A stretch of DNA of 55,421 bases from a virus (Duplodnaviria; Caudoviricetes): positions 1 through 55,421 of IMG/VR virus record IMGVR_UViG_3300044729_001120; one strand, written 5' to 3'. Position numbers and translations under genes: made by a program. Below, one piece after another: positions 8,445 to 51,191 of the stretch. The notes below the pieces were generated by a model. The model had not been told where the DNA came from. It saw nothing but the letters and a program-made list of their open reading frames with translations, and did not search any database. Numbering within the stretch: the first letter of the stretch is position 1; each line of letters starts with the position of its first letter.

Positions 8445-9136
8445 GACTGAACTTCTCGTATGACATGATTCCATCGTGCGCCTACATCATTCGGGTGGTG
8501 GGCAACGCTGCCTCTGAAGAAAAGGCCAAGCGGTGTGCTATGTCGTGCGAGAGAGCGAATCAGCCCTACGAGTTCTGGGATGCCTATGACGGTACGGGTG
8601 AGGGTATTAAAGAACCCAATCATCACAATGTCATCATGGACTGCATCAAGGTTACTGACCACTACCTGACCCGTGGTGAAGTAGCCTGTGCGTTGAGCCA
8701 CATCAGTCTATGGGCAAAGTGCGTACTTGAAGACAAGCCGCTGGTTATCCTTGAGCATGACGCGCTGATGGCTAAACCCTACACGCAACACGCGGTGTTT
8801 AATTCAATCTGCTACTTGGGATCGCACGAGCAGGTGAAGCTTGGCTGGCAGGTATCGGCTACGCCACCTCACGCAACTGAGGGTGAGAATTACCACTTTT
8901 TGTGCCGCGCACATGCGTATGCGATTGATCCGGCTGTAGCAAAGAACCTGCTGGCCTATGTGATGAAGATGGGCATCTGTACCTCCCTTGATATGCTGAT
9001 TCGTGCTGACCTCTTCCCCATCCACCAGATGGGTGTCTACGCCTACAACGTGTATGAAAGCCGAGAAGAAACAACGATCAAGGGCAGGGCGTTAGAGGGC
9101 AGGGCAACCAAGCGCAACGATGGGCTGGTGGTATGA
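8441..9136 (+). CDS. Glycosyltransferase family 25-like
   Basis: FWDAYDG, LTRGEVACALSHISLW, VILEHDA, AHAYAID motifs. Confidence 0.8.
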   Translation: MRLNFSYDMIPSCAYIIRVVGNAASEEKAKRCAMSCERANQPYEFWDAYDGTGEGIKEPNHHNVIMDCIKVTDHYLTRGEVACALSHISLWAKCVLEDKPLVILEHDALMAKPYTQHAVFNSICYLGSHEQVKLGWQVSATPPHATEGENYHFLCRAHAYAIDPAVAKNLLAYVMKMGICTSLDMLIRADLFPIHQMGVYAYNVYESREETTIKGRALEGRATKRNDGLVV

Positions 9137-18061: not shown

Positions 18062-19181
18062 TACTTACGAAACTTTATATCAGCGCGAAGCGCCGAATAT
18101 TGAAGCCCGCAAAATTGGGTTAATGGATGCAGCCAAAGGGCTGTATGAAAGCCCCCTGTCGCTGCCTGCTATCGAGGCAGCGGGTCTGTCCATCGGTGAG
18201 CAGCAAGCGATGGATCTGGCCCGTCAAGGTATTGGATCTTTTGAGCCGTTTATCCAAGGCGGATCGCAGGCCATCACGCAGGGTATGGATCTCACCCAGC
18301 GCGGTGCTGTGGCAGCGGGCGGCGTTCAAACCGCACCTCAGTTTCAAGAGGCGCAGAACGTACTTGGCCGCGCCATGCCGGTGCTCGGTCAGGGCATTGG
18401 CGGCATTCTAGGCTCTGCTCGAACGTATGACCCAAATGCTGCCGTCAATTACATGAATCCCTACCAGCAGGAAGTAACGCAGCAGGCTTTGGGCGAAATG
18501 CGCCGGCAGGCAGACATTGCTCGTCAGGGTCAGGCAGCCCAAGCCGTGGGCGCAGGAGCGTTCGGCGGCACCCGTGAGGGTGTTCAGCGCGCCGAATTTG
18601 AGCGCAACGTGCAAGATCAGATGCAGCAGCGCATCATGCAGGACTACGCCCAGAACTACATGCAGGCACAGCAGGCTGCGATGCAGGGCTTTGAAAGCCA
18701 GCAGGGGCGTCAGTTGGCAGGATCTCAGGCGCTGGGTCAGGCTGCGATGCAGTACGGTCAGCTTGGTCAGGGCATTGGAGCACTTACCGCGCAGCAGGCC
18801 GGCATTGACCTGTCCAAGGCGCAGGCACTGGGCGGTCTTGGCACCCAGATGGGCGCACTGGGCACACAGATGGGCGCGATGGGCGAGGCTACTCAGCAGC
18901 TGGGCGCAGCCGATGTGGGACTGCTCGGCAGCGTAGGTCTGCTCGAGCGCCAGAACGCGCAGGCACAGATCGACGCGATGCGTCAGACGCAGATGCAGGA
19001 GGTCATGGATCCGTATCAGCGGCTCGGCTTCCTGAGCGACATCTACCGTGGCGCACCGTCAACGCAGATGACAATGACGTCGCAGACTGCCCCCTCAGCG
19101 AGCCCCCTGCAGACAGCGGCTGGCCTTGGCATAGGCGCACTATCGAGCGTTGGCGCGGCACAAAAAGCAGGACTCCTCTAA
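18054..19181 (+). CDS. Gln/Ala/Gly-rich internal virion (DNA transfer/ejection) protein
   Basis: 375 aa; YMNPYQQ.V, GAFGG.R motifs, coiled-coil. Confidence 0.6.
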   Translation: MASTYETLYQREAPNIEARKIGLMDAAKGLYESPLSLPAIEAAGLSIGEQQAMDLARQGIGSFEPFIQGGSQAITQGMDLTQRGAVAAGGVQTAPQFQEAQNVLGRAMPVLGQGIGGILGSARTYDPNAAVNYMNPYQQEVTQQALGEMRRQADIARQGQAAQAVGAGAFGGTREGVQRAEFERNVQDQMQQRIMQDYAQNYMQAQQAAMQGFESQQGRQLAGSQALGQAAMQYGQLGQGIGALTAQQAGIDLSKAQALGGLGTQMGALGTQMGAMGEATQQLGAADVGLLGSVGLLERQNAQAQIDAMRQTQMQEVMDPYQRLGFLSDIYRGAPSTQMTMTSQTAPSASPLQTAAGLGIGALSSVGAAQKAGLL

Positions 19182-19188
19182 GGTGAAT

Positions 19189-20925
19189 ATGATGGCAAAA
19201 CAGAAAATGCAGATGGTCGATGACGACGAGATCGAAAACGTCGGCATCATGTCCGGATTTATGGATGACATCGAAGACCTGATGGAAGAGATCGAGAACG
19301 AGAGTCAAGTGGAGGAGGGTGATGATGCCGACATGGCGCGAATCCTTGACCGGCGCCCAAACTCACCCGAGATCCTGATGAACAACCTGCGAGGCGACTA
19401 CCGCTCCATCGATGCACGGCGAGAAGAGCTGGCGGACAGGGTTGGCTACAACGCCGCCCAGCAGACCCCGGACGAAGTGCTGGCGATGCTGCAGCCTGTT
19501 TTTGCACAGCAGGGCATTGCCGCGTTGCCAATGGGCAGCGCAGATGTGGGCGCTCTGCCGATGGACGCCATGACGGGTATGCCTCCACCGGGCGGTATGC
19601 CACCACCGGCTGGTATGCCAATGGATCCAGCAATGATGGGAATGCCACCAGAGATGATGGGCATGGCACCCGAGGGCATTGCTTCGTTGCCGATGGACCA
19701 AGGCGCAATGCCCCCGATGCAGATGGCGCGCGGTGGGATTGTGCAGTATTTCGCGGAAGGTAGCACTCCGGCGGGCGTTACCAAAGCAACTCCGTCGGCG
19801 ATAGACGACCTTTTGGCGGGCGAGCGACAGGAGGTTATTGATCCTATGGTTCGTACCAGAGAGCTAACGCCTGAGTATCAAGAACTTCTGGGCATATCAG
19901 ACAGGGGCGCTACTCAGGCTCAGATGCTGTTCGACATCGCACAAGCGGCGCTTGGCTACGCATCCAACGTAGGCCCTGATGGGCAGCCTTTGCGCGGTTC
20001 AGGCGCCGCTCGTCTTGCTGGCGCCACACGGGCATTACCCGGCCAGATCGGTGCCCGAGCTGCAACGATGCAGGATGACCAGACCCGAGCTCGTCTGGCA
20101 GCACTGCAGCAGGCGCAGGATGAGCAGGCTGCTGCACAGGCAGCTAACACGGCGCTGTCCTCCAATAAGCTGGCGGTGCTGCTGGCTAGAGAGGAGCAGG
20201 CAAATGAGCTTGCGAACCGGGCTCGTTACAGGATGGCTACGCCGGAGGAGCTGGCTAGACTTGGCAACCCTACCGGCCTTGTGCAATTTGATGAAACTGC
20301 TCAAAAGTTTGAGATTTCTCGCGATCCGGTGACAAATATCAATACGGGCGGCGGAAAGTTGAGCGACGTCTTGAGCACTAATGCGGCAAATCAGCTTAAT
20401 GAGTCATACACGCAGGCCAATGCCGCTCTGGGTACGCTGAACACGGTGAATAGCGTCCGTCCTCTGCTGGAGCAAGAGTTGTTTAATGGTCCGCTGAGCG
20501 GGTCGGCGATGTTCGTATCCAGACTCGGTCAGTCCCTCGGTGTTGGTGGGGAAAGCAGTCAGGAGATGTTGCAAAACACGGTTTTGGCTATGCAAGGTCT
20601 TGCAGAATTTGAGCTTCTTGCTGCACAAGCGATGAAAGGGCAGGGCACCATTACTGAAAATGAGCGTGCGTTGATACGCAGAGCTTCAGCTGGCGATCTT
20701 GCCACGATGACACAGGGAGAAGTTACAGAGCTGATGGGCGCGCTAGAGAAGACGGCAAATTACCGCATCAATTCTCATGAGAATCGATTGGCTCAATATG
20801 CTAATGTGCTGAAGGATGACCCTGCCTCTACGCAGCTGCTAGGGCTGTATCAGCTTGGCAATGCGCCAACCATGCCAGCGCCGACCGTATTGCGCTTTGA
20901 CGAGCAAGGGAACCGAATCCAATGA
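19189..20925 (+). CDS. Internal virion protein
   Basis: ATG at 19189 behind AAGGTG; acidic N-terminus, Met/Pro-rich linker, MARGGIV motif, helical C-terminus. Confidence 0.55.
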   Translation: MMAKQKMQMVDDDEIENVGIMSGFMDDIEDLMEEIENESQVEEGDDADMARILDRRPNSPEILMNNLRGDYRSIDARREELADRVGYNAAQQTPDEVLAMLQPVFAQQGIAALPMGSADVGALPMDAMTGMPPPGGMPPPAGMPMDPAMMGMPPEMMGMAPEGIASLPMDQGAMPPMQMARGGIVQYFAEGSTPAGVTKATPSAIDDLLAGERQEVIDPMVRTRELTPEYQELLGISDRGATQAQMLFDIAQAALGYASNVGPDGQPLRGSGAARLAGATRALPGQIGARAATMQDDQTRARLAALQQAQDEQAAAQAANTALSSNKLAVLLAREEQANELANRARYRMATPEELARLGNPTGLVQFDETAQKFEISRDPVTNINTGGGKLSDVLSTNAANQLNESYTQANAALGTLNTVNSVRPLLEQELFNGPLSGSAMFVSRLGQSLGVGGESSQEMLQNTVLAMQGLAEFELLAAQAMKGQGTITENERALIRRASAGDLATMTQGEVTELMGALEKTANYRINSHENRLAQYANVLKDDPASTQLLGLYQLGNAPTMPAPTVLRFDEQGNRIQ

Positions 20926-23417
20926 TAGAAATTCAATTGCCTGATGGAACAGTTCTCCAATTTCCTACCGGGACATCTCAAAGTGTCATTGACGGCGTGG
21001 TTAGCAGTATAACAACTTCGCGTCAGCAGCCTTCTGAGCAACAGGCGGCCCAGCCCGCAGCAACGGGGCTGCAGGTCATTTCCACCACGCCGGATGGCGG
21101 GCGTATTTATCAAATGCCAGATGGCTCGCGCGCCTTTGCGTCTGCCGGCTACTCCACAACAGATCCTGCTGAAATAGATAGGCTCATGGAAGGCGCTACG
21201 CCTGAACAGCTGGTTAGAAGCAGCATCAGCGAGCAAATAATCAGGGAGCGCCCTATCGCCTCGCGTGTAGCTACAGCAGCGCAGGGAATCCCGTTTGTTG
21301 GGTCATATACTGATGAGCTGGCTGCTGCAATAAGTCCAGAAGCTGTAGATCGTACTCGTAGGGCTGTTGAGGCCGTGCGCGAAGAAAGACCGGGGCAGGC
21401 GCTTGGGCTTGAGGTCGCAGGCGCAGTAGCTTCTATACCCGCGATCCTCGCTGCCACCCCTGCATCGGTGCCGACCTTTGTTGCCGCCGCGCCTGCGCTT
21501 GGCGGACAGACCTTGCGCGCCGGATTGGTTGGAGGTTTGGCGGGCGTCACTGAGGGGCTTATTGGCGGGTTTGGTAGAGGCGAAGAGGGCAGTCGAACAG
21601 AATCGGCTATTGAGGGTGGCACATATGGGCTGCTAGGTGCTCCAATCAGCATGGCGATTCCACTTGCTGGGGCTGGTATTAAATACGCATGGCAAAACTT
21701 TAAAGGTCGGGCAGTGCCAGAAATAGCCCGCATGTTGGGTATCTCAAATGACGCCGCAAAAGTTGTGCGCACGGCTCTGAAGAACGATGATCTTGAAGCA
21801 GCTTCGCGGGCTTTAGAGCGCGCCGGGTCCACATCCATGCTGGCGGATGCTGGACCAGCCACACAACAACTTTTGGATGTGAGCATAACAGCTGGGGGCA
21901 CTGCGCCTAGAATCGCTAGAGAAGCAGTAGATGCTCGCGCAGTAGAGTCTGGGACTCGCATGAATCAAGTGCTTGACGATACGCTGGGATCGCCAGAGGG
22001 CACTGATGCGCTGCGCAGGAACATCCGTGAAGAAACTTCTTTGTCGCGAGATCTTACCTATAAGGATGCCTATAGTCAGCCTATTAACTACGCTGGTCGC
22101 AGAGGTAGACACCTTGAAAACCTTATGAGGCGTGTACCTAAGTCTGCTATAGATCAAGCGAATAATTTGATGCGCATCGAGGGTGTTCAAAGCCAACAGA
22201 TTCTTGCAGACATAGCTGCTGATGGGTCAATTACATTTAGTCGCCTGCCAGACGTTCGTCAACTTGATTACATTACCCGAGGATTGAAGGATGTTGCCGA
22301 CGCACAAAATGCCGCTGGAGAACTCGGTGGCACAACGCAGCTTGGTCGCGCAACTCAAAACCTAACTCGCGATATCAGACAGACGTTGCGCAATGAAGTT
22401 CCAGCATATGGCGTTGCATTAGACACTGCTGCTGATGCCATTAGCCGCTCAAACGCTGTTGTCCTTGGTGCATCTATATTTAACCCGTCAACCACTCGGG
22501 AAATGGTCAGAGATGGACTTAAGGGTGCAAGCAAAGCCGAGAGGGACGCGGCAAAAGCTGGTTTACGCTCAGCCATTGATGAAAGGTTGGCAAATGTTAA
22601 CGCTGTGGCGTCAGACTCAAACATTGAAATTAGAGAATTTCAAAAAATGGCAAACGAGCTTCGCAGTCGTGCGATGCGCGAAAACATGGAGGTTTTGCTT
22701 GGAAAATCCGCTGCCGACAATCTTTACAAGCAGCTTGATGAGCAGGTTGTTGCGTTAGAGCTACGAGCTGCTGTTGCCAGAAACTCCGCTACTGCGCGCA
22801 GGCAGGCTATTGAGGGGCAAGTTGACGATATACTTGCACCGGGTATTCTAGAAACATTTGTTACTCAGGGGACTGAAGCTGGGCCAATCAACGCCATTAA
22901 ACGGCTTACCGCTGTCATGACCGGAACTACTGCAGAGGCTAGGGCCCTTCGCCGAATGGGAATCTACGATGAGATTGCTAGGGTGCTGGTGACAACTCGC
23001 GGACCGCAGGCTGGCTTGGCGATAAAACTTGTTGAAAGGGCGATGGCTGGTGAAGCTCTTAATGATGCACAAGCAAAAATAATCGCTCGCGCAATAACCA
23101 CCCCCGCTGCAATGGCGACATACGCCGCTACTGCGCGACCAGAACCCGAAGCAGGGGAGCCGAGAACTTATTCCACACCAACTCCCACACCAGCTCCTGT
23201 TTTAAATAGGGTTGATTCGCCAAGTGTGCCAGCTCCCACACCAGCCCCCACGCCAGCTCCCGTGCCACCACCACAGGCTCGGGTACCCCCCACAACTTCG
23301 CCCACCAGAGGCGTACCGGCGCTGGACATGCCGGCTGCTCCGGCTGGCGGACAGGCACCACCACCTCCCCAGCTTGCTGCAGCTGAGATGTATCGGCAGC
23401 TGTTTCCGTTCGGTTGA
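20922..23417 (+). CDS. Large internal virion / ejection-type protein
   Basis: 831 aa, ATGA overlap; N-terminal LPDG...FP.GT motif, Ala/Gly hydrophobic stretch, Pro-rich tail. Confidence 0.55.
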   Translation: MIEIQLPDGTVLQFPTGTSQSVIDGVVSSITTSRQQPSEQQAAQPAATGLQVISTTPDGGRIYQMPDGSRAFASAGYSTTDPAEIDRLMEGATPEQLVRSSISEQIIRERPIASRVATAAQGIPFVGSYTDELAAAISPEAVDRTRRAVEAVREERPGQALGLEVAGAVASIPAILAATPASVPTFVAAAPALGGQTLRAGLVGGLAGVTEGLIGGFGRGEEGSRTESAIEGGTYGLLGAPISMAIPLAGAGIKYAWQNFKGRAVPEIARMLGISNDAAKVVRTALKNDDLEAASRALERAGSTSMLADAGPATQQLLDVSITAGGTAPRIAREAVDARAVESGTRMNQVLDDTLGSPEGTDALRRNIREETSLSRDLTYKDAYSQPINYAGRRGRHLENLMRRVPKSAIDQANNLMRIEGVQSQQILADIAADGSITFSRLPDVRQLDYITRGLKDVADAQNAAGELGGTTQLGRATQNLTRDIRQTLRNEVPAYGVALDTAADAISRSNAVVLGASIFNPSTTREMVRDGLKGASKAERDAAKAGLRSAIDERLANVNAVASDSNIEIREFQKMANELRSRAMRENMEVLLGKSAADNLYKQLDEQVVALELRAAVARNSATARRQAIEGQVDDILAPGILETFVTQGTEAGPINAIKRLTAVMTGTTAEARALRRMGIYDEIARVLVTTRGPQAGLAIKLVERAMAGEALNDAQAKIIARAITTPAAMATYAATARPEPEAGEPRTYSTPTPTPAPVLNRVDSPSVPAPTPAPTPAPVPPPQARVPPTTSPTRGVPALDMPAAPAGGQAPPPPQLAAAEMYRQLFPFG

Positions 23418-40244: not shown

Positions 40245-41729
40245 GTGGCGTTTATGCACATGGATCCCAAGGAAGTTGAGGCGCAGCGGTTGAGGCTGGA
40301 GTTGAGGCTGGCGTTGTTGGATCGTCGGGAGAGGAGCAAGGCTAGTTTTCTGGACTTTGCGCGGTACGCTTGGCCGGAGGCTATTTTCTCGGCGCATCAC
40401 AGCAAGATGGCGGATGCGTTTGATCGGATCATCAGTGGTGATCTCAAGCGGCTGGTTATCAACATGCCGCCGCGTCACACGAAGAGTGAGTTTGGCTCGT
40501 ACTTGTTGCCGGCGTATGCGATGGGTCGAAAGCCGGACTTGAAGATAATTCAGGCAACGCACACGGGCGAGCTTGCGGTTCGCTTTGGTCGCAAGGTGCG
40601 TAACCTGATGGACACGCAGAACTACAAGGATCTGTTTGAGGGGGTTGAGCTGCAGGCTGACAGTAAGGCGGCGGGGCGGTGGGAGACGAGCAAGGGTGGT
40701 GAATACTTTGCGGTGGGTGTTGGTGGTGCGATGACGGGACGGGGCGCTGACCTGTTGATCATCGATGACCCTCACAGCGAGCAGGACGCGATGTCGTCGC
40801 TGGCGCTTGATAATGCGTGGGAGTGGTACAGTGCGGGTCCTCGCTCGCGGTTGCAGCCGGGCGGGGCGGTTGTTGTGATCATGACGCGCTGGGGGACGAA
40901 GGATCTGACTGCTCGGCTGATCAAGAGTCAGAACTCGTTTGGCTCGGACAAGTGGGAGGTGATTGAGTTCCCGGCGATCTTTGATGAGGGTACGCCCAAG
41001 GAGCGTCCGCTGTGGCCGTCGTTTTGGAAGCTTGAGGAGCTGCAGGCGGTGCGAGCTCAGCTTGGGGTGCAGCGCTGGAACGCGATGTACCAGCAGCGTC
41101 CGACGGCGGATGAGGGTGCGATTCTCAAGCGTGAGTGGTGGCGGACGTGGGAGCGTGATCAGTTGCCGTCGGTTGAGTACATTATCCAGTCGTATGACAC
41201 GGCGTATTCCAAGAAGGAGACGGCGGACTACTCGGTGATCACGACGTGGGGGGTGTTTTACCCGACGGAGGATGCGGGTCCGAATTTAATTCTGATGGAC
41301 ATGCGCAAGGGTCGCTGGGACTTTCCTGACCTAAAACGCATTGCGAAGGATCTGTACACGTACTGGCAGCCGGACAACGTCCTCATTGAGGCGAAGGCGA
41401 CGGGCACGACGCTGCAGCAGGAACTACGGCGCATGGGGATTCCGGTAACGATGTACAGCCCGGGTGGTCGCCGTGCTGGTCACGACAAGGTGTCGCGCGC
41501 GAATGCAGTCGCGCCGATGTTCGAGTCGGGCATGATCTGGGCAACCGAGGATCACTGGGCTCAGGAGGTGATCGAGGAGTGTGCTGCCTTCCCGAACGGG
41601 GACAATGATGATATCGTTGACAGCACGACGCAGGCTCTGCTGAGGTTTCGCGCTGGGAACTTTATTTCGTTGCAGTCGGACGAAGAAGACGAGAGCAGTG
41701 ACGAATCGCTTGTGCCGGAGTATTATTGA
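40245..41729 (+). CDS. terL: Terminase large subunit
   Basis: INMPPRHTKS (Walker A variant), GRGADLLIIDDP, MTRW, YQQ.P, SYDTA...DYS, IEAKATG, FPNG..DD.VD. Confidence 0.95.
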   Translation: MAFMHMDPKEVEAQRLRLELRLALLDRRERSKASFLDFARYAWPEAIFSAHHSKMADAFDRIISGDLKRLVINMPPRHTKSEFGSYLLPAYAMGRKPDLKIIQATHTGELAVRFGRKVRNLMDTQNYKDLFEGVELQADSKAAGRWETSKGGEYFAVGVGGAMTGRGADLLIIDDPHSEQDAMSSLALDNAWEWYSAGPRSRLQPGGAVVVIMTRWGTKDLTARLIKSQNSFGSDKWEVIEFPAIFDEGTPKERPLWPSFWKLEELQAVRAQLGVQRWNAMYQQRPTADEGAILKREWWRTWERDQLPSVEYIIQSYDTAYSKKETADYSVITTWGVFYPTEDAGPNLILMDMRKGRWDFPDLKRIAKDLYTYWQPDNVLIEAKATGTTLQQELRRMGIPVTMYSPGGRRAGHDKVSRANAVAPMFESGMIWATEDHWAQEVIEECAAFPNGDNDDIVDSTTQALLRFRAGNFISLQSDEEDESSDESLVPEYY

Positions 41730-41766
41730 GTTAAAATATCGTAAATTTTGCTAAGGCGGTGCCGAC

Positions 41767-44700
41767 ATGCCCAATTTAACTGCGCGAGAGATGTTGTTAC
41801 GGCTTCCGATGCGGATGGCGGAGGGTGGAGCGGTGGACACGGCTCCGGGAGTGTCGGCGGCGTATCGCAGAGCGATGCAGGTCGGCGGTCAGCAGACGGT
41901 TGACGACTACTACGCCAATCTTCGTGCTGATGCAAAGGCGTACCTTGCCAATCCCAACGCGCCGACTGGCGCTGAGGCGTACAACGTGCTGCTGCAGTCT
42001 GGCATCAGCACCTCTGACCTGATCAATGCGGGCGTGGATCAGGCGGTGCTGGACAAGATCTTTGCGGTCAAGATGCCGATTATCCCGCAGTCGCAGTTTG
42101 TGACGCCAACTGGCATGACCTCGGCGTATGAGCGCAGTCCCGATCTGGCGTTTGAGTCGCAGCGCTTAACCGCGCAGGGGCAGGATGGCCGGGCGATACT
42201 AGACAAGCAAGGCCGTGACTACATTGCGAACCTGCAGCAGGGCGGCATTGATGCGGCTGAACGTGCGCAGATGCTGGAGTACGCTACTGAGCGCGGGTAC
42301 TCGTTTGATGACCTGATGAAGGCCGGCGTGGATCCCAATGTGCTTTTCACCCGTCCGCAGGCTGCTCCGCCACCGCCCCCGTTCCCCGATCCCGTGCCGT
42401 ACACGCCGATAACGGTGTACCAGCCGCTGCCGACGCAGCCCGACATCTTTGCTGCTGGGCAGCCTGCTCTGGACACGACGTTCAGGGAGAGCTCTCCGCG
42501 CACCGCGATCCCCGGCATGCCGGGCCAGTTCGACTACAGCCCAGCGGCGAAGTTAAGACCCGCAACAGGCGCAGGCTTTACCTTCACGCCGCCAAGCGTG
42601 ACCTCTCGTCCGCGCTCGTTACTAAGCCCGAGGGAGATCCAAGCCTACGGCGGGCTGACGTCGGCCTCGCAGCGTTTTGCGCAGAACCGACAGCTGTTGG
42701 ACAACAACCTGCGCAGGCTGGCGCAATCAACACCCGCGCTTAAAGACCTTAAAACCTACAATCAGCTGCGCAACATGATGATGTCGAGTTATTTTGCTGC
42801 TGACCCCAACACGTTATCAGATCCCCTCTTGGCGTTTGACCCCAAGACGGTTGAGGGGCAGAACCTTCAAAAGTACCTTGCTGGTTTGCCTGCGCCCAGC
42901 ACGCAAAAGCCTGATCCCATAGTTGTCACTGACGGCATGACCGGCAAGGACGTTGAGATTGACGCGCCTGTGTACGGTGGCTTTTTGCCCTTTGCCAAGG
43001 GCGGCTACGTAAAAAAGTCTGATGGGTCGGCAAGGGATGGGCTGGCTCGCTTTCAGGAAGGCGGTGAGGTTAGTGGTCGCAGGCCGCTGAGTCCGAATGA
43101 TCCGTTGTACATCAGGCAAGATGCGCCTGTTAATCTAGATGAGCTACGGCGCCGGCAGCTGGGGGATGTTGCCCCCGCAGCCGATGCGCAGTTGCCGCTA
43201 GACGAACTGCTGCGTCGTCAGCTGGAGGGTATCGACAACACGCCGTCAACGGCGCGAACTGCAGGATCGCAGCAGAGCGAAAGCCGCAATATGCTGCAGA
43301 ACATTGTCGCTGGCGCTAAGCAGATCCCCGGCACTGTCTTTGACTACGGCAGGGGCATTGCGCAGAGCGAAAATCCCTTGGCACAGATTCGCTCTGATGT
43401 TGGTGCGATGGGCGGGGCGATGATAGAGGGCGCCAAGCAAGACCCATTGGGCTTTGCTTTGGACATGACGCCAATTATCGGTGAAATACGATCTGGCATG
43501 GACGCAAAGAAATACTCGGACATGGCGAATGAGGCTGACAGGGCTGGAGATTATGAACTTGCTGACAGCTACCGGCAGGTTTCCACGATGGCAGCGGCAG
43601 GAGCAGTTCCCTTTGGCGGCATCGGCGCTCGCGGCGCGCGACGCGCGGCAATGAGTGATATGGCTGATGTGCCGCCAGACAGCGCCAGAGGGATGCTGGA
43701 CGCGCTAACGCCTGAAGCTGGCGTTGACGCCCCAAGAACACCCGGCGAAGACGTTGACGCCTTGACTGCACTGGACCAGCCGCCGGCAGGCAGTGCTGCG
43801 GCGATGTTGGATGAGGTGGATGCTGCGGCCCCAAGCGCCAGATTGAGTAGAGATGAGCTTGGCAGGATAAATGCCAGCGTTGGCTCTAATAGAATTAAAC
43901 AGCGGGCCATGAAAGAAGAGACTCGAAGAATTAAAAATAACTTTCTCCCTGATGATGGCTGGGAAAGGATTAATTTTTCAGGCGTTAAAGAAAACAAGCC
44001 GGATTTTAAAAAAATAGCCTATGGGTTTCAAAAGCCTCCAGAGGGGCTTGATAAGGGAGAGTGGGCAAATCGTCTTTCTGACAACTTAGTTTCAGAGGTA
44101 GACGGGGTAGTGCAGCGCGCACGATCAGGAGATCAGGCAGCAATTGATATACTGCGGCAGGCTAATTGGTATCGTGGAATGCGAGACCAGCTGCGCTCCG
44201 AGTTTGGAGGCATTGGTGACGTTTTTGCAGACGTACTTGGCACAACGAGCGCTCAGACAAATGTAGAGCAAAATTTCCGTAACGCCACTGAAATATTGCG
44301 CAGATATAGCCGGGGAGAGTTTGACACTGAGCTGCAAGCTTATGAAAACAGAATAAAACAAGGCATCCCTGTGGATGGAAAAACTTTAACTGCGTTGCAC
44401 AAAGCAGGAGAATTTCCGTTAATTACCAACTCCGCTGGGAAACTATTTAACACAAACAGCCCGTCCTCAATGGGGGCGCTGCTGGACATGTTCCGATCAG
44501 TAAAGACTGGTAGCGCGCCAAAAACACCAAACTTTACCGGCAACCTTATTGGCCTTACCAATGAAGCAACAGTAGATGTTTGGGCAGCACGAATGCTGCG
44601 CAGGCTTTCGGGACAGTCGCGCATACCGCCTGTGGCTGAACAAGGGGTCACCGGAACTCACTTGGTTGGATCCAGTCTTGGGAATCCAAGGGTTGGTGGC

Positions 44701-47700
44701 GAGTTCGGTTTTGGTCAAGATGTCTTTAGAAGTGCTGCAAACAGGATTAACGAATCTGGTAACGTAAAGTCTGTTGTTCCTGAAATGGGCGATCTTGGTC
44801 CTGACGACCTGCAGGCGGTTGCTTGGTTCATGGAAAAAGAAAGATGGACAAACAATGGCTGGACAACAAAAGCCGGTGAAGGCGGATCTCTTGAATACGA
44901 AATGTCCCTAGCCGGAAGCCCGGATCAAGTTCGCATTGATGATTTGCGTCGAGAAATTAATACAGGCTTTAAAACCCCAAATAAAAGAAAAAAAGAAACT
45001 GATGCCGAATATGCAGAGAGAGTAGCTCAAGCAAGGCGCGTCTATGACAACCGGCAGGAGCTGGCAGGCATAGAACTGCAGTCGCTTCAGGCCCCGCTGC
45101 AGCGTTATACAGTTGGCGTTTCTGGAGAGCGTCCTGATTTGCCGATGAGTAATTACGCTCAGGCAGAACTTGCAGCTGAGATTGATGACGTGGTTCGTAA
45201 TGATTCTTCAGTGCTTGGATATAACCTTGCTAATACCTATGGATCTTTCATGGGAAATACAGAAAGAGCATTAAATGCTGAATTTGTAGTCCAACAAAAT
45301 TTTAATCCAAGTGCTTTGATTAGAAGACTGGTTGAGCAGGGTAAAAATTACAATCAGGATGCCGTATTCATATCTCGCTCCGTTCCTGCTGGCTCTCCAA
45401 ACGCAAGGCCGGGGGCAGAGATATTTTTTAAAGAAGAAATATCTCCGAAGGAGCTTGCCAAGATTACAGCTCGTTTAAGGGAATATGGAGTGGACGGATT
45501 TACTTATATAACAGACATGAGGTTTGATGACAGAATCAACCGTCAGGCTCGATCAGGAGCTCCCGAGACGGCAAAATTAACTGGATTGCGGTTCCAGTAC
45601 ATACCTGAATTTGACGAAGGATTTGACCCAAGACGCGCTGATGAGATTTATAAAGAAAAAGAAGATTTGTTTGCAGCGATTCTTGCGGATACAATGGCAG
45701 ACCAAAACGTATCTGACATAAGATATAATTTTTACGATACGCAAGTCTTTTTTAGGGATGGCTACGATGAGTACCTTACAAGAAATACTCCAGCGAGTGG
45801 AAGCCAAGCAGGGGGAGAAGTCTCCAGTGGCGCAGGCTCTGCGCAATCAAATCGCGGCAGAGAAGGGCAAGCAGAGCTTCCAGAACCTGTACGTGACCGG
45901 AGCGGTCAAGCGGCCCGCGCAAGCCCCCAAGAAGGCATAGATAACTTCGCCAAAGGCGGCGCAGTCACCTCCTCGCGTCGCATGCTAGAGAACCTCATTG
46001 GAAAAAAGCCTGAAGGCCAGCGCGTTGATGCGACTGGCCTGCTTGGCTTTGCCAATGGTGGAGAGGCTCGTGTAGGCGGCAGCGCCCCAGCAGTTGCTGG
46101 CCGCACGGGCAGGGCTGCTCAACTAGCAGCACAAAGGGCAGAGGAACCACAGACTGAAAGCCGCGCCATGCTGGAGCGTTTAGATGCGGCCACGCCTGTT
46201 GAGCGCGCCGTGTTTGAATCAACGGGCATGGAGCCGGGTCTGGACAGAGCCATGATGTTACCCTTTGCGGGCAGCCGTGAAGAGGGGAACCTGCAGCTTG
46301 CCGCGCCGGGCTTTGTCTACGACGCAGCAAGGGCGTTTGTCACCCCGGGCATGGCCGCCAGAGGTCAGCGGGTGTCGGATGAGGACATCCTTAACACTGC
46401 TATGAACGTCATGGGCGGCGGCGTAGGCGCGAGTCGAGTTGCAGGGCCTAGAACCGCTCCGGACGAAATGCTGCTGGGTATGGGGGTTGGGTCGAATGTT
46501 ATAAAATTGGGGAATACGGGCGGAAGTAACGCACGTAACGCTGCGGATGAGTTAAAGGAGATTTTTGCAGAAAACCCGCTTAATTCAAGGGAGTTGATAA
46601 GCAACACGGCAGGTGCAACAGTGTACTCAATGGGAGACACGCTACACCTGTCTGATATTCGTACATTCGACCCCGGAAAAGGTGGGGCATCAAAAATGTT
46701 GCGCAGCATTTTAGAAGTTGCAGACAAAAACAATGTCCCTGTTACATTGACCGCAGACAATTATAGTGGGGATGGACTTACCACAGCACAACTTGTTGAC
46801 TGGTACAAACGCAACGGCTTTGAGGTTGAAAACGACTTTGGGGATGATGGCGTAGACATGATCCGTCAGCCTAGAAATATTACTGAAGAGGCTTCCGGTG
46901 CAGCTAGGTCTACACCAACCGCCGCTGACGACCTTGCTGCGTTGACGGATCGGGCTCCGACTACCAGTAGCATAGCTGCTAGGTCTGCGAATGTAGTAAC
47001 CGCTTTAAATAAAAGCGGAGACCCTTTAGGCATAAACGTAGCCGTAGATCCGCGTAACGGAACGGATTACGCGGACCTTATTGTCAGCGGCGCTAAAAAG
47101 TTTGAAAGCCGAGAGACAGCATCCCTAAAGCCTTACGTGGGTAAGAGAGTAGGTATTGTGCGTACTGGTGCAGGTCAGGCAGAAGTTATAGGCTCTGTTG
47201 AAATAGGTCAACCTATTAAAGTTAATGAAAAACAGTTTAATCAGCTTAGGGATCAACACCTAGTTGCAGAAGATTCTTCGTTTAACATTAAAAAAGGCCA
47301 AACTAAATTCCTTTATCCCATGATAGACCCCACATCTACGCCTCCTCAAAAAGTCACGTCTAAAGGAATTGTAGCTAGGGCTATCCCCACCGGGCAAAGG
47401 GCCGCCGACGACCTTGCTGCGTTGACGGATCGTGCCCCCAAGCTTATTGATTCATTGCCGGGAAGAAACGAATTAAATTATTGGATTGATGGTGGTCAGG
47501 ACGCAGTTGAAAGAGGGTTCCCTGAAGAGCCTTTCATCCTCTTAGACAAACTCTACATTGACCCGCAAAACAGAGGCCAAGGCGCTGCTCGACAAGTGCT
47601 AGTAGAAGGCTTGCAAGAAATGGCAGAGCAATATCCCGGTATGGACGTTAGGCTTTTGGCCGAGCCACTTGATAGATCAACAAATCAAAGTGACCTAGTA

Positions 47701-47901
47701 AGGTTGTATGAGTCTGTTGGGTTTGAGGTTGACAATTACCAAGATGGAATGAGCTCAATTCCGATGTCTCTACGACTTCCCAAAAAAGTCGCAAGGACTG
47801 GGGGCAACACACCACCCGCTGCACTAGGCTACGCCAAAGGCGGCGCAGTCACCAAGAACAACGTAGAACGCATGCGCAACGATAATCGAAAGTATCTTTA
47901 G
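41767..47901 (+). CDS. 2044-aa modular (polyvalent) protein: HhH-glycosylase-like domain, two GNAT-like domains and an ASCH-like domain
   Basis: WY...SAQTNV..N...PKT.NF..NL.G...TVDVW..R...LQA..W; LSDIRT..PGKGGAS...LVDWYKRNGF; YADLIVSGAKKFESR; LYIDPQNRGQGAA...LVRLYESVGF. Confidence 0.65.
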   Translation: MPNLTAREMLLRLPMRMAEGGAVDTAPGVSAAYRRAMQVGGQQTVDDYYANLRADAKAYLANPNAPTGAEAYNVLLQSGISTSDLINAGVDQAVLDKIFAVKMPIIPQSQFVTPTGMTSAYERSPDLAFESQRLTAQGQDGRAILDKQGRDYIANLQQGGIDAAERAQMLEYATERGYSFDDLMKAGVDPNVLFTRPQAAPPPPPFPDPVPYTPITVYQPLPTQPDIFAAGQPALDTTFRESSPRTAIPGMPGQFDYSPAAKLRPATGAGFTFTPPSVTSRPRSLLSPREIQAYGGLTSASQRFAQNRQLLDNNLRRLAQSTPALKDLKTYNQLRNMMMSSYFAADPNTLSDPLLAFDPKTVEGQNLQKYLAGLPAPSTQKPDPIVVTDGMTGKDVEIDAPVYGGFLPFAKGGYVKKSDGSARDGLARFQEGGEVSGRRPLSPNDPLYIRQDAPVNLDELRRRQLGDVAPAADAQLPLDELLRRQLEGIDNTPSTARTAGSQQSESRNMLQNIVAGAKQIPGTVFDYGRGIAQSENPLAQIRSDVGAMGGAMIEGAKQDPLGFALDMTPIIGEIRSGMDAKKYSDMANEADRAGDYELADSYRQVSTMAAAGAVPFGGIGARGARRAAMSDMADVPPDSARGMLDALTPEAGVDAPRTPGEDVDALTALDQPPAGSAAAMLDEVDAAAPSARLSRDELGRINASVGSNRIKQRAMKEETRRIKNNFLPDDGWERINFSGVKENKPDFKKIAYGFQKPPEGLDKGEWANRLSDNLVSEVDGVVQRARSGDQAAIDILRQANWYRGMRDQLRSEFGGIGDVFADVLGTTSAQTNVEQNFRNATEILRRYSRGEFDTELQAYENRIKQGIPVDGKTLTALHKAGEFPLITNSAGKLFNTNSPSSMGALLDMFRSVKTGSAPKTPNFTGNLIGLTNEATVDVWAARMLRRLSGQSRIPPVAEQGVTGTHLVGSSLGNPRVGGEFGFGQDVFRSAANRINESGNVKSVVPEMGDLGPDDLQAVAWFMEKERWTNNGWTTKAGEGGSLEYEMSLAGSPDQVRIDDLRREINTGFKTPNKRKKETDAEYAERVAQARRVYDNRQELAGIELQSLQAPLQRYTVGVSGERPDLPMSNYAQAELAAEIDDVVRNDSSVLGYNLANTYGSFMGNTERALNAEFVVQQNFNPSALIRRLVEQGKNYNQDAVFISRSVPAGSPNARPGAEIFFKEEISPKELAKITARLREYGVDGFTYITDMRFDDRINRQARSGAPETAKLTGLRFQYIPEFDEGFDPRRADEIYKEKEDLFAAILADTMADQNVSDIRYNFYDTQVFFRDGYDEYLTRNTPASGSQAGGEVSSGAGSAQSNRGREGQAELPEPVRDRSGQAARASPQEGIDNFAKGGAVTSSRRMLENLIGKKPEGQRVDATGLLGFANGGEARVGGSAPAVAGRTGRAAQLAAQRAEEPQTESRAMLERLDAATPVERAVFESTGMEPGLDRAMMLPFAGSREEGNLQLAAPGFVYDAARAFVTPGMAARGQRVSDEDILNTAMNVMGGGVGASRVAGPRTAPDEMLLGMGVGSNVIKLGNTGGSNARNAADELKEIFAENPLNSRELISNTAGATVYSMGDTLHLSDIRTFDPGKGGASKMLRSILEVADKNNVPVTLTADNYSGDGLTTAQLVDWYKRNGFEVENDFGDDGVDMIRQPRNITEEASGAARSTPTAADDLAALTDRAPTTSSIAARSANVVTALNKSGDPLGINVAVDPRNGTDYADLIVSGAKKFESRETASLKPYVGKRVGIVRTGAGQAEVIGSVEIGQPIKVNEKQFNQLRDQHLVAEDSSFNIKKGQTKFLYPMIDPTSTPPQKVTSKGIVARAIPTGQRAADDLAALTDRAPKLIDSLPGRNELNYWIDGGQDAVERGFPEEPFILLDKLYIDPQNRGQGAARQVLVEGLQEMAEQYPGMDVRLLAEPLDRSTNQSDLVRLYESVGFEVDNYQDGMSSIPMSLRLPKKVARTGGNTPPAALGYAKGGAVTKNNVERMRNDNRKYL
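45758..45940 (+). CDS. Candidate overprinted small helical protein nested (+1 frame) inside the 2044-aa gene
   Basis: MATMSTLQEILQRVEAKQGEKSPVAQALRNQIAAEKGKQSFQNLYVTGAVKRPAQAPKKA*; AGGGA upstream of the second ATG (45767); the host frame here is low-complexity linker. Confidence 0.5.
   Translation: MATMSTLQEILQRVEAKQGEKSPVAQALRNQIAAEKGKQSFQNLYVTGAVKRPAQAPKKA
45948..47853 (+). repeat. 22-bp direct repeat CGCCAAAGGCGGCGCAGTCACC (45948-45969 and 47832-47853)
   Basis: Identical copies 1884 bp apart (in frame), encoding AKGGAVT. Confidence 0.85.
46921..47438 (+). repeat. 38-bp imperfect direct repeat (46921-46958 and 47401-47438) flanking the ASCH-like domain
   Basis: 35/38 identical, 26-bp exact core GACGACCTTGCTGCGTTGACGGATCG, 480 bp apart, encoding AADDLAALTDRAP. 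Confidence 0.9.
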
Positions 47902-47910
47902 GACACCGAC

Positions 47911-50277
47911 ATGCCCATAGACAAGGTAGTAAATCTAGCCCCGAGAACCGACCTCATCGAGATTGGTGAGGAGGACGGTCAGGACATTGAGATCATCATT
48001 GAGGATGACGGCAGTGCTCTGATTGAGATTGGCATGGGCGATGAGGAGCAGGGTTTTTACGACAACCTTGCGGACAGCATCGATCCGCAGGATCTTGGGC
48101 ACATCTCCATCACGCTGCAATCTCTGTTCGACGCGGATAAGAGCTCTCGCGGGCAGTGGGAGGAGATGTACGCCAAGGGTTTGGACCTGTTGGGCCTGCG
48201 GATGGAGGATCGCACGCAGCCGTTCCGTGGCGCGTCGGGCGTTGTGCATCCAATGCTGACCGAGGCCATCATTCAGTTCCAAGCGCAGTCGTTTAAGGAG
48301 CTGATGCCAGCGGGTGGTCCTGTGCGAACGCAGACACTGGGCAAGGAAACTCTGGATAAAGTCCAACAGGCTGCACGTGTACAGGATTTTATGAATTACC
48401 AGATCACGGCTGTGATGAAGGAGTACACGCCGGAGTTCGACCAGCTGCTGTTTTACACCGGATACGGCGGCTCTACCTTTAAAAAAGTGTACTACGACTC
48501 GCAATTGGGTCGTATGGTCAGTCGTCTGGTGCTTGCCGACGACCTTTACATCCCCTACCACGGCTCGAGCGTGATTTCTGAGTGTCGGCGCATCACGCAC
48601 CGCATTGCGATGGACTCAAACGAGTTTAAAAAGCGTGTTTACGCGGGTGAATATATTGACATTGAGGTGTCTCCTGACGGTTCTGGTATTTCGCAGGATC
48701 AAATTGGTGCCACCATTGACCGAATTACCGGCATGCAGTCTGCTGGCGAGCCAGAAGAGATCGCTTTGCTGGAGTTTCACGTCGATTTGGACATCCCCGG
48801 CTACGAAGACGTGGACGAGGACGGCGAACCGACTGGGATCAAGCTGCCGTATGTGGTTACAACCGACGAAACCAGTGGTCGAGTGATCAGTGTGCGTCGA
48901 AACTGGGCAGAAGAAGACCCTCTGCACCTTAGAATTGAGTATTTTGTGCATTACATGCTCGTTTCTGGCCTCGGTGCCTACGGTTTGGGCTTTGTGCACC
49001 TGATTGGCGGCCTTTCTAAGACTGCAACCTCTGCACTTCGTCAGTTATTGGACTCTGGCACGCTTTCTAACCTGCCTGCGGGCTTCAAGGCCAAGGGCGC
49101 GCGGATCGCGGACGACGACAAGCCCATCCAGCCGGGTGAATGGCGTGATATTGACGCTGGTGGGGCTGAACTGGCCTCATCACTGCTGCCGTTGCCCTAT
49201 AAAGAGCCCAGCCAGACTCTATTTGCGCTGTTAAGCTTCACCGTGGACGCCGGCAGACGTCTTGCCAGCATTGCAGACATGCAGGTAGGCGACGCCAACC
49301 AGCAAGCGGCAGTGGGCACCACTCTTGCGCTGCTTGAGCGCGGCTCAATGGTGATGAGCGCCATCCATAAGCGCCTGTACTACGCACAGACGCAAGAGTT
49401 TGAGATGCTTTTCCGAGGTTTTGGTCAGTACTTGCCCCCCGAGTACCCCTATGATGTACCGGGAGCGTCTCGTTTAATCAAGCAGTCTGACTTTGACAAC
49501 AAGGTTGCCGTGCTGCCGGTTGCTGACCCCAATATCTTCTCCGCTGCGCAGCGCATCACCTTGGCACAGACCCAGCTTCAGCTGGCGCAGAGCGCGCCAA
49601 ACATGCACAACATGTACGAGGCGTACTACCGGGTTTACCAGTCGATGAACGTGAGGGACATCGACGGCATTCTGAAGACCCAGACCAACCAGATGCCCAA
49701 GGACCCGGCAAGCGAGAACATCGATGCGATTGACGGCAAGCAGCTTAAGGCGTTTGCCGGCCAGCAGCACGACTCGCACATTGCCTCGCACCTGATCATG
49801 GGGCTCTCGCCCTTGGTGCAGGGCAACCCGCTGGCCGCTGTTGAGTTGCAGAAACACGTCATGGAGCACGTTAAGCTCAAGGCAGAAGAAGACGCCGAGG
49901 CCGAGCTGTTCCGTCAGTACGGCAGCGACCCTGACCGTATGGTCTCCGACATGCAGCGTGAGGCGATGATCTCGCTCAACATTGCTCAGTACCTGATGGA
50001 CGTCAAGGCGATGCAGACAACGCTCTCTGGCGAGGGAGCCGGCGCACCTGACCCGGTCATCGCGCTCAAGGAGCAGGAGCTTCAGCAGCGCGCGGCGAAG
50101 GATCAGGCTGAAATACAGCTCAAGCAAGAGGGATTGAAGAACGAGCAGATGCGCATCCAAGAGAGCTCACAGGCCAACGATGAGCGCATTGCATCGCAGG
50201 AGAAGATCGCTCAAGGGCGGTTTGAAGTTGCCAGAGAGCGCATTAACACACCAAAACAAGGCCCGGGGGGTGCGTGA
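47911..50277 (+). CDS. Portal protein
   Basis: 788 aa; SR..WE..Y.KGL.LLG, PF.GA..V.HP, DFMNYQ, FKKVYYD, GFKAKG, GTT.ALLE.G. Confidence 0.88.
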
Positions 50278-50732: not shown

Positions 50733-51191
50733 ATGCAACCAAAGCTGACAGCTCTAGAACAGAAATGGGCAGACGATAAGGCCAACCAAAAACCCTCGCT
50801 GAACGATGCCTACACAGATGATGGCACTGTTCCAGAAAGCGGTCTCACACAAAGCGTCTTAGACTTGATACCGCAACCGACTGGGTGGCGCCTTGCGCTG
50901 CTACCTTACCGGGGTGCCGGTACGTCAAAGGGCGGCATTGTGCTGACCAAAGAAACAACTGAACGCACTCAACTGGCAACAAACGTGGGCTACGTGCTCA
51001 AGCTTGGACCACTCGCCTACGCGGACGAAAGCAAGTTCCCCGACGGCGCATGGTGCAAACCCGGTGACTGGGTGGTGTTTGGTCGTTACGCGGGCTCCCG
51101 CATCCAGATTGAGGGCGGTGAGATTCGCCTTCTGAACGACGACGAGATTTTGGGAATTGTGTCCGATCCTGCAAGCATTTTGCACAAGTGA
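50733..51191 (+). CDS. groES: GroES-like co-chaperonin
   Basis: PTGWR, SKGGIVL, VLKLGP, GDWVVFGRYAG, LLNDDEILG. Confidence 0.85.
   Translation: MQPKLTALEQKWADDKANQKPSLNDAYTDDGTVPESGLTQSVLDLIPQPTGWRLALLPYRGAGTSKGGIVLTKETTERTQLATNVGYVLKLGPLAYADESKFPDGAWCKPGDWVVFGRYAGSRIQIEGGEIRLLNDDEILGIVSDPASILHK

Follow-up and report, generated by a model that had tools for sequence, protein, structure and literature searches.

What is a predicted protein of 2,044 amino acids (aa) doing between the large-terminase gene (terL) and the portal gene of a tailed phage, and where do its unlike parts come from? The open reading frame (ORF) in question runs from an ATG at 41767 to 47901 on the + strand of a 55,421-nucleotide (nt) stretch, here called the window, which is the whole of the IMG/VR virus record IMGVR_UViG_3300044729_001120, rated 96% complete; terL lies upstream of it and the portal gene downstream. 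The best explanation that we can offer, at a probability of about 0.6, is that this gene encodes a resident polyvalent (multi-effector) protein that combines a fixed frame with interchangeable cassettes and is packaged and ejected. An initial annotation, made from the letters of the window, had arrived at a packaged array of activities, akin to phage polyvalent proteins and shuffled by recombination; this main inference was largely right in that cassettes are exchanged and linkers and ends stay.

The gene between terL and portal

A terL search of IMG/VR gave 80 loci, which with three GenBank relatives and the window made 84 sources, 52 of them containing both the end of terL and the start of portal. 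The gap between the two genes measures 1,335-8,249 nt in 52 of 52, with at least one ORF of at least 300 aa in 51 (the largest 2,724 aa); we therefore regard the 2,044-aa gene as a fixed resident of the HTVC023P-type lineage. The cultured relatives carry proteins of 825 aa (DSL-LC04), 483 and 892 aa (HTVC027P), and 615 and 751 aa (023Pt_psg01) in this interval. In the more distant CRP-901 roseophages, portal and terL adjoin as gp75 and gp76, according to PMC10149686. The initial annotation had taken the ORF to be inserted between terL and portal; this has to be given up, as the whole lineage has the gene and its N-terminal 640 aa are conserved.

BLASTP of the window protein against the locus proteins, counted in 50-aa bins, finds 19-29 relatives at aa 1-350, 5-7 at aa 700-1400 and 0-2 at aa 1550-2044. 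The frame predicted from these sequences is the N-terminal ~640 aa plus a short (~23-aa) C-terminal tail, both conserved, around a middle that varies. In an alignment of the first 700 aa from 22 phages (A2; 28-72% identical overall), R7 and G20 of the N-terminal 23-mer are invariant, M1, A6, M9, L10, P14 and G21 are kept in at least 90% of the 22 sequences, and aa 24-200 form a conserved domain. The stretch at aa 224-290 is almost invariant: ~20 of its columns never vary in 22-26 sequences whose overall identity is just 28-72%, and it gave no family match. At the other end, the last 22 residues (aa 2023-2044; AKGGAVTKNNVERMRNDNRKYL) are 100% identical in the closest relative, locus L004, despite a different preceding cassette, and similar tails occur in at least nine other loci (L006, L008, L013, L018, L021, L023, L028, L030 and L047). 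A Gly-Gly (GG) motif falls, in its loose pattern, within the first 60 aa in 37 of 51 loci and at most 40 aa from the C-terminus in 22 of 51.

Base composition alternates along the protein: G+C is 0.60 over aa 1-690 and 0.62 over aa 1346-1577, in a genome of 0.537, and is 0.456 over aa 700-1345, 0.464 over aa 1578-1715, 0.444 in the ASCH block and 0.469 in GNAT2. G+C at third codon positions (GC3) is 0.35-0.43 in these four AT-rich blocks, 0.66 in the N-terminal part and 0.56-0.73 in the reference genes (terL, portal, major capsid protein, helicase and primase). Since GC3 of the blocks lies below both the reference genes and the N-terminal part, it is the AT-rich blocks, not the linkers, that are compositionally odd; one other structural ORF, 20922-23417, has a GC3 of 0.44.

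The GG motif, [MFY]xxGGx[VA], occurs six times in the protein (aa 17, 409, 429, 1394, 1428 and 2022; 2.9 per 1,000 aa), compared with three times in the 14,210 aa of the other + strand ORFs of at least 100 aa (0.21 per 1,000 aa, ~14-fold less dense). A second motif, xx[RA]xMLxx[LIV], occurs seven times, namely the five instances of the initial annotation plus SAAAMLDEV (aa 676) and WAARMLRRL (aa 939), the latter inside the 650-aa block and probably a chance match. There are also two in-frame DNA repeats: 46921-46958 / 47401-47438, 92% identical, whose copies both encode AADDLAALTDRAP and bracket the ASCH block, and 45945-45969 / 47829-47853, 96% identical, which encode [F/Y]AKGGAVT. The initial annotation had described an ORF of this length between terL and portal, AT-rich blocks joined by GC-rich linkers, the six GG motifs, the recurring second motif and in-frame direct repeats, and these observations all stand, with terL and portal identified by phrog_38 and phrog_1216. 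The features on which the argument draws are as follows.

40245-41729 (+): terL (large terminase), the upstream neighbour; phrog_38 at 9.6e-116, Terminase_6C at 5e-13.
41767-47901 (+): predicted polyvalent protein gene, 2,044 aa; the ORF between terL and portal.
41767-41835 (+): N-terminal 23-mer M-P-N-L-[ST]-A-R-E-M-L-x-x-L-P-x-R-M-A-x-G-G-x-V, with the first GG motif; conserved in 22 sequences.
41836-42366 (+): conserved chassis domain, aa 24-200, from the alignment; repeat search finds an internal duplication, 42015-42040 / 42309-42334.
42436-42636 (+): most conserved stretch, aa 224-290, PALDxxFRxSxPRT..FDYxPAAKLxPATGxGFxFTPPSVTSRPRSLL; ~20 invariant columns.
42991-43071 (+): GG motifs 2 and 3 (FAKGGYV at aa 409, FQEGGEV at aa 429), from the motif scan; left side of a joint at 43064 in metagenome run X14.
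43864-45801 (+): AT-rich 650-aa block, aa 700-1345; AlphaFold2 model and homologue search.
45802-46497 (+): GC-rich linker, aa 1346-1577, with GG motifs 4 and 5 (45946-45966 and 46048-46068) plus a pair of xRxMLxxL motifs; the X14 joint has its right side here, at 46072.
46498-46911 (+): cassette 'GNAT1', aa 1578-1715, probably GNAT-like; not in the closest relative, L004.
46921-46958 (+): linker repeat 1, AADDLAALTDRAP; DNA repeat.
47062-47283 (+): ASCH domain, aa 1766-1839, within the cassette aa 1716-1888; PF04266 as a segment, a borderline call.
47401-47438 (+): linker repeat 2, AADDLAALTDRAP; DNA repeat.
47533-47778 (+): predicted GNAT2 acetyltransferase domain, aa 1923-2004, within the cassette aa 1889-2021; PF13508 and PF13673.
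47830-47901 (+): conserved C-terminal tail, YAKGGAVTKNNVERMRNDNRKYL and the stop codon, with GG motif 6; identical in L004.
47911-50277 (+): portal gene, the downstream neighbour; phrog_1216 at 5.9e-40.

The ORF begins 37 nt after terL and ends 9 nt before portal, and the portal is 66-97% identical in 15 relatives. Inside 41767-47901 the other ORFs are antisense and short only (at most 142 aa), and internal promoter- or terminator-like sites are not above shuffles on either strand (9 vs 7.2 and 11 vs 12.5 expected).

Cassette exchange between genomes and in lake metagenomes

The terL region of L004 is 96.7% identical to that of the window at nucleotide level, and its identity blocks end or start at aa 23, 1394, 1577/1716, 1888 and 2023. 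The first block runs up to aa 23, just past the first GG motif; the second runs from aa 1394, exactly at FAKGG, to aa 1577 (95.8% nt identity); the third covers aa 1716-1888, between the two AADDLAALTxRAP copies (96.5% nt identity); and the fourth starts at aa 2023, where AKGG lies. L004 has the second and third blocks side by side (17115->17121), so the GNAT1 cassette (46498-46911) is an extra in the window, and the slot between the second linker copy and the tail holds ART-PolyVal in L004 (PF18760, 6.8e-17) and GNAT2 in the window. Other relatives stop matching or switch at the same linker motifs: BLASTP similarity to the window protein ends at aa 1396 (L005), 1436 (L008) and 429 (L011); L045 matches from aa 410 to 1389, and the ASCH cassette is 74% identical to L045 at aa level.

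Over all locus proteins, in alignments of at least 50% identity, 19.7% of 294 distinct internal alignment ends lie within 15 aa of a GG motif, compared with 5.2% under random placement (maximum 9.9% in 1,000 trials). The GG motif is one preferred junction, not the sole one; other breakpoints lie in Pro-rich and Ala-rich linkers at aa 196-203, 462-503 and 645-688. A count of its loose form over the 71,360 aa of the locus proteins gives 181, vs 35 in shuffles (maximum 52), and the AADDLAALTxRAP linker precedes GNAT, ART and unassigned cassettes in 11 of 30 related fragments, with at most two copies in each. On a quick terL tree the window falls in a well-supported clade of eight phages, five with the 650-aa block and three without, a distribution that forces at least three changes of block presence.

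An extra module also sits just after the N-terminal 23-mer in three close relatives (L004:11523-14222, L007:1696-4095 and L011:1340-3559), with weak DprA winged-helix matches (0.0047 and 0.00042), and because of these modules we take it that cassettes enter near the N-terminus too. The same three proteins carry long Ala/Lys/Glu or Pro/Val repeat tracts ahead of the stretch that corresponds to aa 224-290.

Window positions 41700-47950 are present in 20 public sequencing runs from 19 studies, all labelled lake or freshwater metagenomes, with no RNA dataset listed among them; because of these labels the window branch looks freshwater, in a phage group otherwise described as marine. Contigs of four runs were aligned to the window at 90% likeness, leaving out the run that is possibly its source sample, and stretches of runs X6 and X14 lacking contig cover were not counted as evidence. 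Three well-supported joints were found, one in X10 and two in X14, and the reading frame is kept in all three. The X10 contig passes from 46495 to 46912 through 5 other letters (depth 9.7, side 55) and is the GNAT1-less form of L004, while another X10 contig spans 46559-46808 without difference to the window. In one X14 contig, position 43064 within FQEGG is followed, after 10 letters, by 46072, just past FANGGEAR (depth 62, side 56); this is a motif-to-motif deletion of ~1000 codons (~3 kb) that removes the 650-aa block, and contigs holding the block occur at depth 36-46 in the same run. The second X14 joint leads from 47808 back to 46912 (depth 80.6, side 37), placing the GNAT2 cassette ahead of a TPTAADDLAAL linker in another cassette order, and a loose end behind 46948 in X14 reads like the start of an L004-type ART cassette. 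None of the joints lies at a 31-mer repeated in the window, and one agrees with a form assembled independently in IMG/VR; two weak joints, X10 42902->47576 (side 21) and X14 47428->47860 (side 25), were not used.

What these comparisons show of the motif is only that it stands at the borders between cassettes and acts as a joint in recombination. The initial annotation had proposed aligning orthologues to see if linkers are conserved while cassettes are swapped, and the L004 blocks, the breakpoint statistics and the metagenome contigs agree in showing that they are.

Contents of the cassettes

The last cassette is predicted to be a GNAT acetyltransferase. GNAT2 matches PF13508 (Acetyltransf_7) at 28.5 against a cut-off of 27 in the whole protein and PF13673 (Acetyltransf_10) at 23.7 against 23.6 as a segment; it contains QNRGQGA at aa 1934, matching the GNAT acetyl-CoA loop, Q/R-x-x-G-x-G/A, and the same Pfam matches are found in P0279, a fragment 98% identical to the cassette. 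When the whole protein was searched against cultured phages by tblastn, the only match was a 66-residue one to GNAT in Edwardsiella phage EPP-1. The ASCH assignment (PF04266) is borderline, at 22.2 against a cut-off of 21.2 as a segment and 16.8 on the whole protein. The cassette at aa 1578-1715 is probably GNAT-like: a language-model feature (atlas) scores 0.89 to GNAT-bearing clusters, which is a lead only, phrog_11975 matches at E 0.0011, and GNAT1 shares a 14-residue BLASTP match with GNAT2 (E 0.017); no Pfam GNAT match was obtained with the whole protein or the segment, and no homologue of 75-242 aa was found. Where the initial annotation counted at least four enzyme-like blocks, GNAT2 stands above Pfam cut-offs and ASCH as a segment only, GNAT1 is reduced to a lead and the 650-aa block carries no enzyme assignment.

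That block has a confidently modelled fold to which no activity is assigned. Its AlphaFold2 model (window 43834-45816, aa 690-1350; 38-sequence alignment) reached a predicted local distance difference test score of 92.3 and a predicted template-modelling score of 0.89. It comprises one half made wholly of helices, in which the DUF7178 region lies, together with a long helical hairpin and a pair of ferredoxin-like alpha+beta units. Foldseek of the model against the PDB returned no match at E<=0.001, PDB sequence searches with the block, the C-terminal 455 aa of the protein and the profiles A1 (the block alignment) and A2 gave nothing usable, and tblastn of the block alone against cultured phages gave no match. 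In VIA-align comparisons the block reached a middling Z of 7.4 with phage SAM lyase, and model residues 80-336 reached Z 7.1 with the 8-oxoguanine glycosylase (HhH-GPD) of T. maritima (180/209 residues, root-mean-square deviation (rmsd) 4.2, 13% identity) and Z 5.9 with EndoIII-3 of D. radiodurans, values that are middling for helical domains. Of the glycosylase fold named in the initial annotation there remains this middling resemblance, set against the empty Foldseek search.

A search with aa 690-1350 gave 852 representative clusters at E<=0.001. The block's structural relatives in BFVD are proteins of uncultured phages with names such as InPase-containing, large-polyvalent-protein-associated, RelA/SpoT or ART-PolyVal-like. 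Two distant homologues, of 3,644 and 4,109 aa, carry LPD38, ART-PolyVal and DUF7178; of these two (P0230 and P0202), P0230 alone has InPase. The cargo of the locus relatives includes ART-PolyVal in L004 and L048, Zeta_toxin in L030 (8e-11), PcfJ in L008 and DSL-LC04, DUF7178 above cut-off in L048, DUF6973 in L079, weak Phage_L5_gp82 matches and a NUDIX-bearing fragment; many of the 18 relatives' proteins scanned gave no domain match at all. The kinship with phage polyvalent proteins that the initial annotation proposed is supported by ART-PolyVal, Zeta_toxin, PcfJ and DUF7178 in locus relatives and by the occurrence of the block in InPase/LPD38/ART-PolyVal giants. Separately, the second terL-portal protein of HTVC027P (gp42; L002:14818-17496) has an HNH-like stretch (D-H...N...N), recognised by eye.

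The linker motif, packaging and precedent

From 138 distinct instances the logo of the GG motif is P(-3)-x-[R/G]-[F59 M26 Y15]-A62-[E/K/D]-G-G-[E/A/P/D]-[V67 A33]. The motif is conserved at protein level across phages that use different codons and stands at both protein ends; among proteins that hold the 650-aa block, its strict form has a density of 0.77 per 1,000 aa in the 1,200-2,000-aa class, 0.14 under 1,200 aa (T7-like forms included) and 0.11 in the giants. This pattern suggests a signal that would be read by a lineage-specific partner, be it for head targeting, portal docking or as a processing site. A further idea, tentative and on the whole doubtful, is that [FMY]-A-x-G-G-x-[VA], often paired with S-x-R-x-M-L-x-x-L, is a lineage-specific protein signal for head targeting, portal docking or processing, common to this protein and other internal virion proteins of the phage; being kept at both ends and between modules, it would therefore double as an in-frame cassette joint and allow plug-and-play capsid loading of effectors, as a protein-level counterpart of the integron. 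A reading of GG-x-V as a mimic of the GroES mobile loop was dropped, the hydrophobic pattern of the loop being different.

Two other large proteins of the structural module hold one GG motif each. The first, P0277 (646 aa; 16121-18061, +), has FAKGGIA at aa 135 followed by xxAREM, a long Gly/Ala-rich membrane-like stretch, and C-terminal ~55 aa that match tape-measure families (phrog_23013 at 9.5e-9 and others); it is possibly another ejected protein with the shared linker motif. The second, P0278 (591 aa; 19150-20925, +), has MARGGIV at aa 192 after a Met/Pro/Gly-rich repeat region, and no family match in Pfam or PHROGs.

Several viral and bacteriocin proteases cut after Gly-Gly. A rival reading is a true polyprotein: a phage or host protease would cut it at the GG motifs, perhaps also elsewhere in the linkers, and free individual proteins inside the head or the infected cell. 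The motif's place at the borders of cassettes and near both termini (17 aa in from the N-terminus, ~22 aa short of the C-terminus) and its conservation in spite of different codons would suit such a scheme, and autoproteolytic release in polyvalent proteins is discussed by Iyer et al. 2017 (PMC5512222). We nevertheless consider cleavage quite unlikely: Pfam and PHROGs profile searches of the window's structural module and the 2,044-aa protein found no protease, prohead protease included (an absence from profiles, which is not an exclusion), and no peptidase domain was seen in the 18 relatives' proteins scanned. The word polyprotein in the initial annotation, taken as cleavage, accordingly finds no support.

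The virion link of the protein comes partly through its block. The closest free-standing block relatives are ~930-aa proteins, about 60% identical (519 matches), encoded in ~33-kb T7-like podophage contigs between the tail-tube and small internal-virion-protein (IVP) genes and a gp16-like gene (phrog_6651), followed by the tail fibre; the likeness points to transfer of the block module between phage families. Among 79 such loci, tail-tube or IVP homologues lie upstream in 56 of the 66 with 3 kb of upstream sequence, and a gp16-like IVP or fibre lies downstream in 44 of the 53 with 3 kb downstream. These contigs (L084-L162; for example L089:9995-12793) have four genes between tail tube B and fibre, of which the ~930-aa protein is the third. 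Kinship of aa 505-640 with the N-terminus of that protein was considered and rejected, phmmer of aa 1-500, 500-700 and 1346-1600 against 137 such proteins giving nothing at E<=0.001.

Since block relatives sit both in giant polyvalent proteins and in the T7-like internal-virion-protein cluster, packaging and ejection of the window protein are likely, as gene position, block context and precedent together suggest. A precedent is gp47 of the short-tailed phage phi24B, a 2,811-aa polyvalent protein that proteomics finds abundant in virions and that does not show in the reconstruction; its authors propose that it is packaged and ejected (bioRxiv 10.64898/2026.04.10.717836). The window protein is likewise a large polyvalent protein of a short-tailed phage; the domains differ, gp47 having LPD5, LPD1, LPD38 and an MuF-C metallopeptidase, and the comparison runs only through LPD38, which co-occurs with the block elsewhere. 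Packaging and injection have been argued for phage polyvalent proteins generally (Iyer et al. 2017, PMC5512222).

The same T7-like context would also suit a mainly structural ejection protein, a DNA conduit or core after the manner of the T7 core proteins, in which block and frame would form a channel or plug and the small enzymes would be accessory. The C-terminal half of the block resembles tandem alpha+beta porter subdomains of RND pumps in VIA-align (Z 9.2, 8.6 and 8.5; 174-187 residues aligned; rmsd 3.7-4.8), a role as conduit has been proposed for phi24B gp47 by its authors, and P0277 and P0278 share the GG motif. Z values of 8-9, however, are within the range reached by unrelated models, and the block shows no similarity to T7 gp15 or gp16. 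It is also lacking in three of the eight phages of the window's terL clade and in 46 of 52 loci (blastp 1e-20), and because most loci do without it the block cannot be an essential channel part in this lineage. We judge this account unlikely.

Distinctly improbable, in our view, is a protein that stays out of the virion and works late in the cytoplasm of the producing cell, modifying progeny DNA, RNA or proteins, or excluding rival phages. GNAT and ASCH could act on phage or host RNA or protein there, the packaging of the protein is itself deduced, and no MuF or portal-fusion domain ties it to the head; yet the position between terL and portal is fixed in 52 of 52 loci, conserved non-enzymatic ends are hard to explain for a soluble enzyme, and block relatives stand among internal virion protein genes. 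The ART-PolyVal and Zeta cargo of the relatives moreover fits the injected-effector pattern of Iyer et al. 2017 (PMC5512222).

Several points weigh against the packaged, cassette-exchanging protein that we prefer. Four in five similarity breakpoints lie more than 15 aa from a GG motif. On the quick terL tree, phages with the block do not group together significantly (99 of 500 shuffles scored as low), which fits turnover but is a weak statistic. As for the metagenome joints, they rest on assemblies of related strains and not on individual molecules, and some are weak (side under 30). DUF7178 in the window protein reaches 24.7 bits, below its cut-off of 27, and no signature polyvalent Pfam domain is above cut-off. 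The anti-defence or host-takeover activity of the cassettes is suggested by their domain families, the enzymatic activity of each being putative. The block alignment A1 shows no detectable homology to T7 gp15 or gp16 (hhalign probability 0.5 and 0.1), so the virion link of the block is positional only. The literature searched holds no virion proteomics for this lineage, and the HTVC023P-type papers that were searched by term do not mention the gene.

Under the preferred reading, the frame would comprise the N-terminal 23-mer, the ~640-aa N-terminal part and the ~23-aa C-terminal tail, and the cargo in the window the 650-aa module that other polyvalent proteins also have, the probable GNAT1, the ASCH domain and GNAT2. 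Gly/Ala/Pro-rich linkers bearing [FMY]-A-x-G-G-x-[VA] and AADDLAALTxRAP separate the cassettes. Both motifs are repeated inside a single gene and from one related phage to another, and for this reason in-frame recombination at them or close by inserts, deletes, replaces and reorders cassettes, as the comparisons show. Expression would be late, along with the structural genes; the conserved ends would bring the protein into the head, which it would leave together with the DNA, and its enzymes would then act on host targets as infection begins.

The wider setting is the structural module of an HTVC023P-type podophage lineage. The relatives of the window are Phage DSL-LC04 (TerL 76%), phage 023Pt_psg01 and the Pelagibacter phages HTVC027P and HTVC023P, and the module runs in the order terL, 2,044-aa ORF, portal, Cpn10-like gene, coiled-coil protein and capsid gene, picking up again at the beginning of the record, where tail genes and more large structural genes lie. 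The Cpn10/GroES-like gene directly after portal (50733-51191, +; Cpn10 at 1.8e-7, phrog_3188 at 1.6e-16) is a core gene of the lineage (PMC9599517). Two ~400-aa paralogues (3835-5031 and 6806-8032, both +), probable tail fibres or receptor-binding proteins with a beta-propeller fold, match PHROGs for 'regulator of chromosome condensation' (RCC1-like repeat) at 2.5e-48 and 4.2e-55 and tail-protein PHROGs less strongly. Also within the structural region is a protein with weak likeness to 2OG-Fe(II) oxygenases (8441-9136, +; phrog_61 at 6.2e-8).

MuF effector fusions are known as 'MuF polymorphic toxins'. Among head proteins the MuF / SPP1 gp7 family (PMC5512222) resembles the window protein in having a conserved N-terminal part (head-associated in MuF), a variable effector and a gene beside portal. 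Unlike those fusions, the window protein holds several cassettes, not one C-terminal toxin, its gene lies upstream of portal, not downstream, and Pfam gave no Phage_Mu_F match to it, the E limit being 0.1 for the whole protein and 5 for segments. The T7 internal virion proteins gp14, gp15 and gp16 are alike by gene position only, through the ~930-aa block relatives between the tail-tube genes and the gp16-like gene. T4 Alt (PMC5512222) is a head-packed, injected ADP-ribosyltransferase that modifies host proteins; ART domains occur in the window's locus relatives, and Alt differs from the window protein in being single-domain and from a myovirus.

The nearest kin are the polyvalent proteins of Iyer et al. 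2017 (PMC5512222), which likewise string many unrelated enzymatic domains into one giant chain. Two of their marks, at least two disparate predicted activities in one chain and a late or virion gene setting in a portal-terminase phage, have their counterparts here in the GNAT, the ASCH segment, the two-part 650-aa module and the probable second GNAT, and in the co-directional structural module between terL and portal. GNAT, ART, Zeta-like and PcfJ-type cargo is common to that group and the window's locus family, and the block to the window protein and the LPD38/InPase/ART-PolyVal giants. Unlike the proteins described there, those of the window lineage have a conserved frame of their own (N-terminal 640 aa and tail) in a fixed place between terL and portal, with two short linker motifs at the cassette boundaries; the word 'linker' is absent from the main text of that paper. 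The kind of protein is known, then. What appears undescribed is its fixed frame and its locus, the use of two linker motifs as joints that keep the reading frame, and the occurrence of several cassette variants together in single lake samples; in the literature searched for polyvalent proteins and for HTVC023P-type phages, nothing on these points was found.

The locus amounts to a catalogue of candidate injected effectors (GNAT, ASCH, ART, Zeta-like, PcfJ, NUDIX and many unassigned cassettes) and, because each cassette is bounded by recognisable linkers, the cassettes can be extracted automatically and tested singly. If the ends and the GG motif are a packaging signal, they would show how a podophage loads varied cargo and would offer a handle for loading phage heads with proteins of choice in laboratory systems. 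The locus also shows cassettes gained, lost and reordered inside one and the same sample, the evolution of a polyvalent protein seen in progress.

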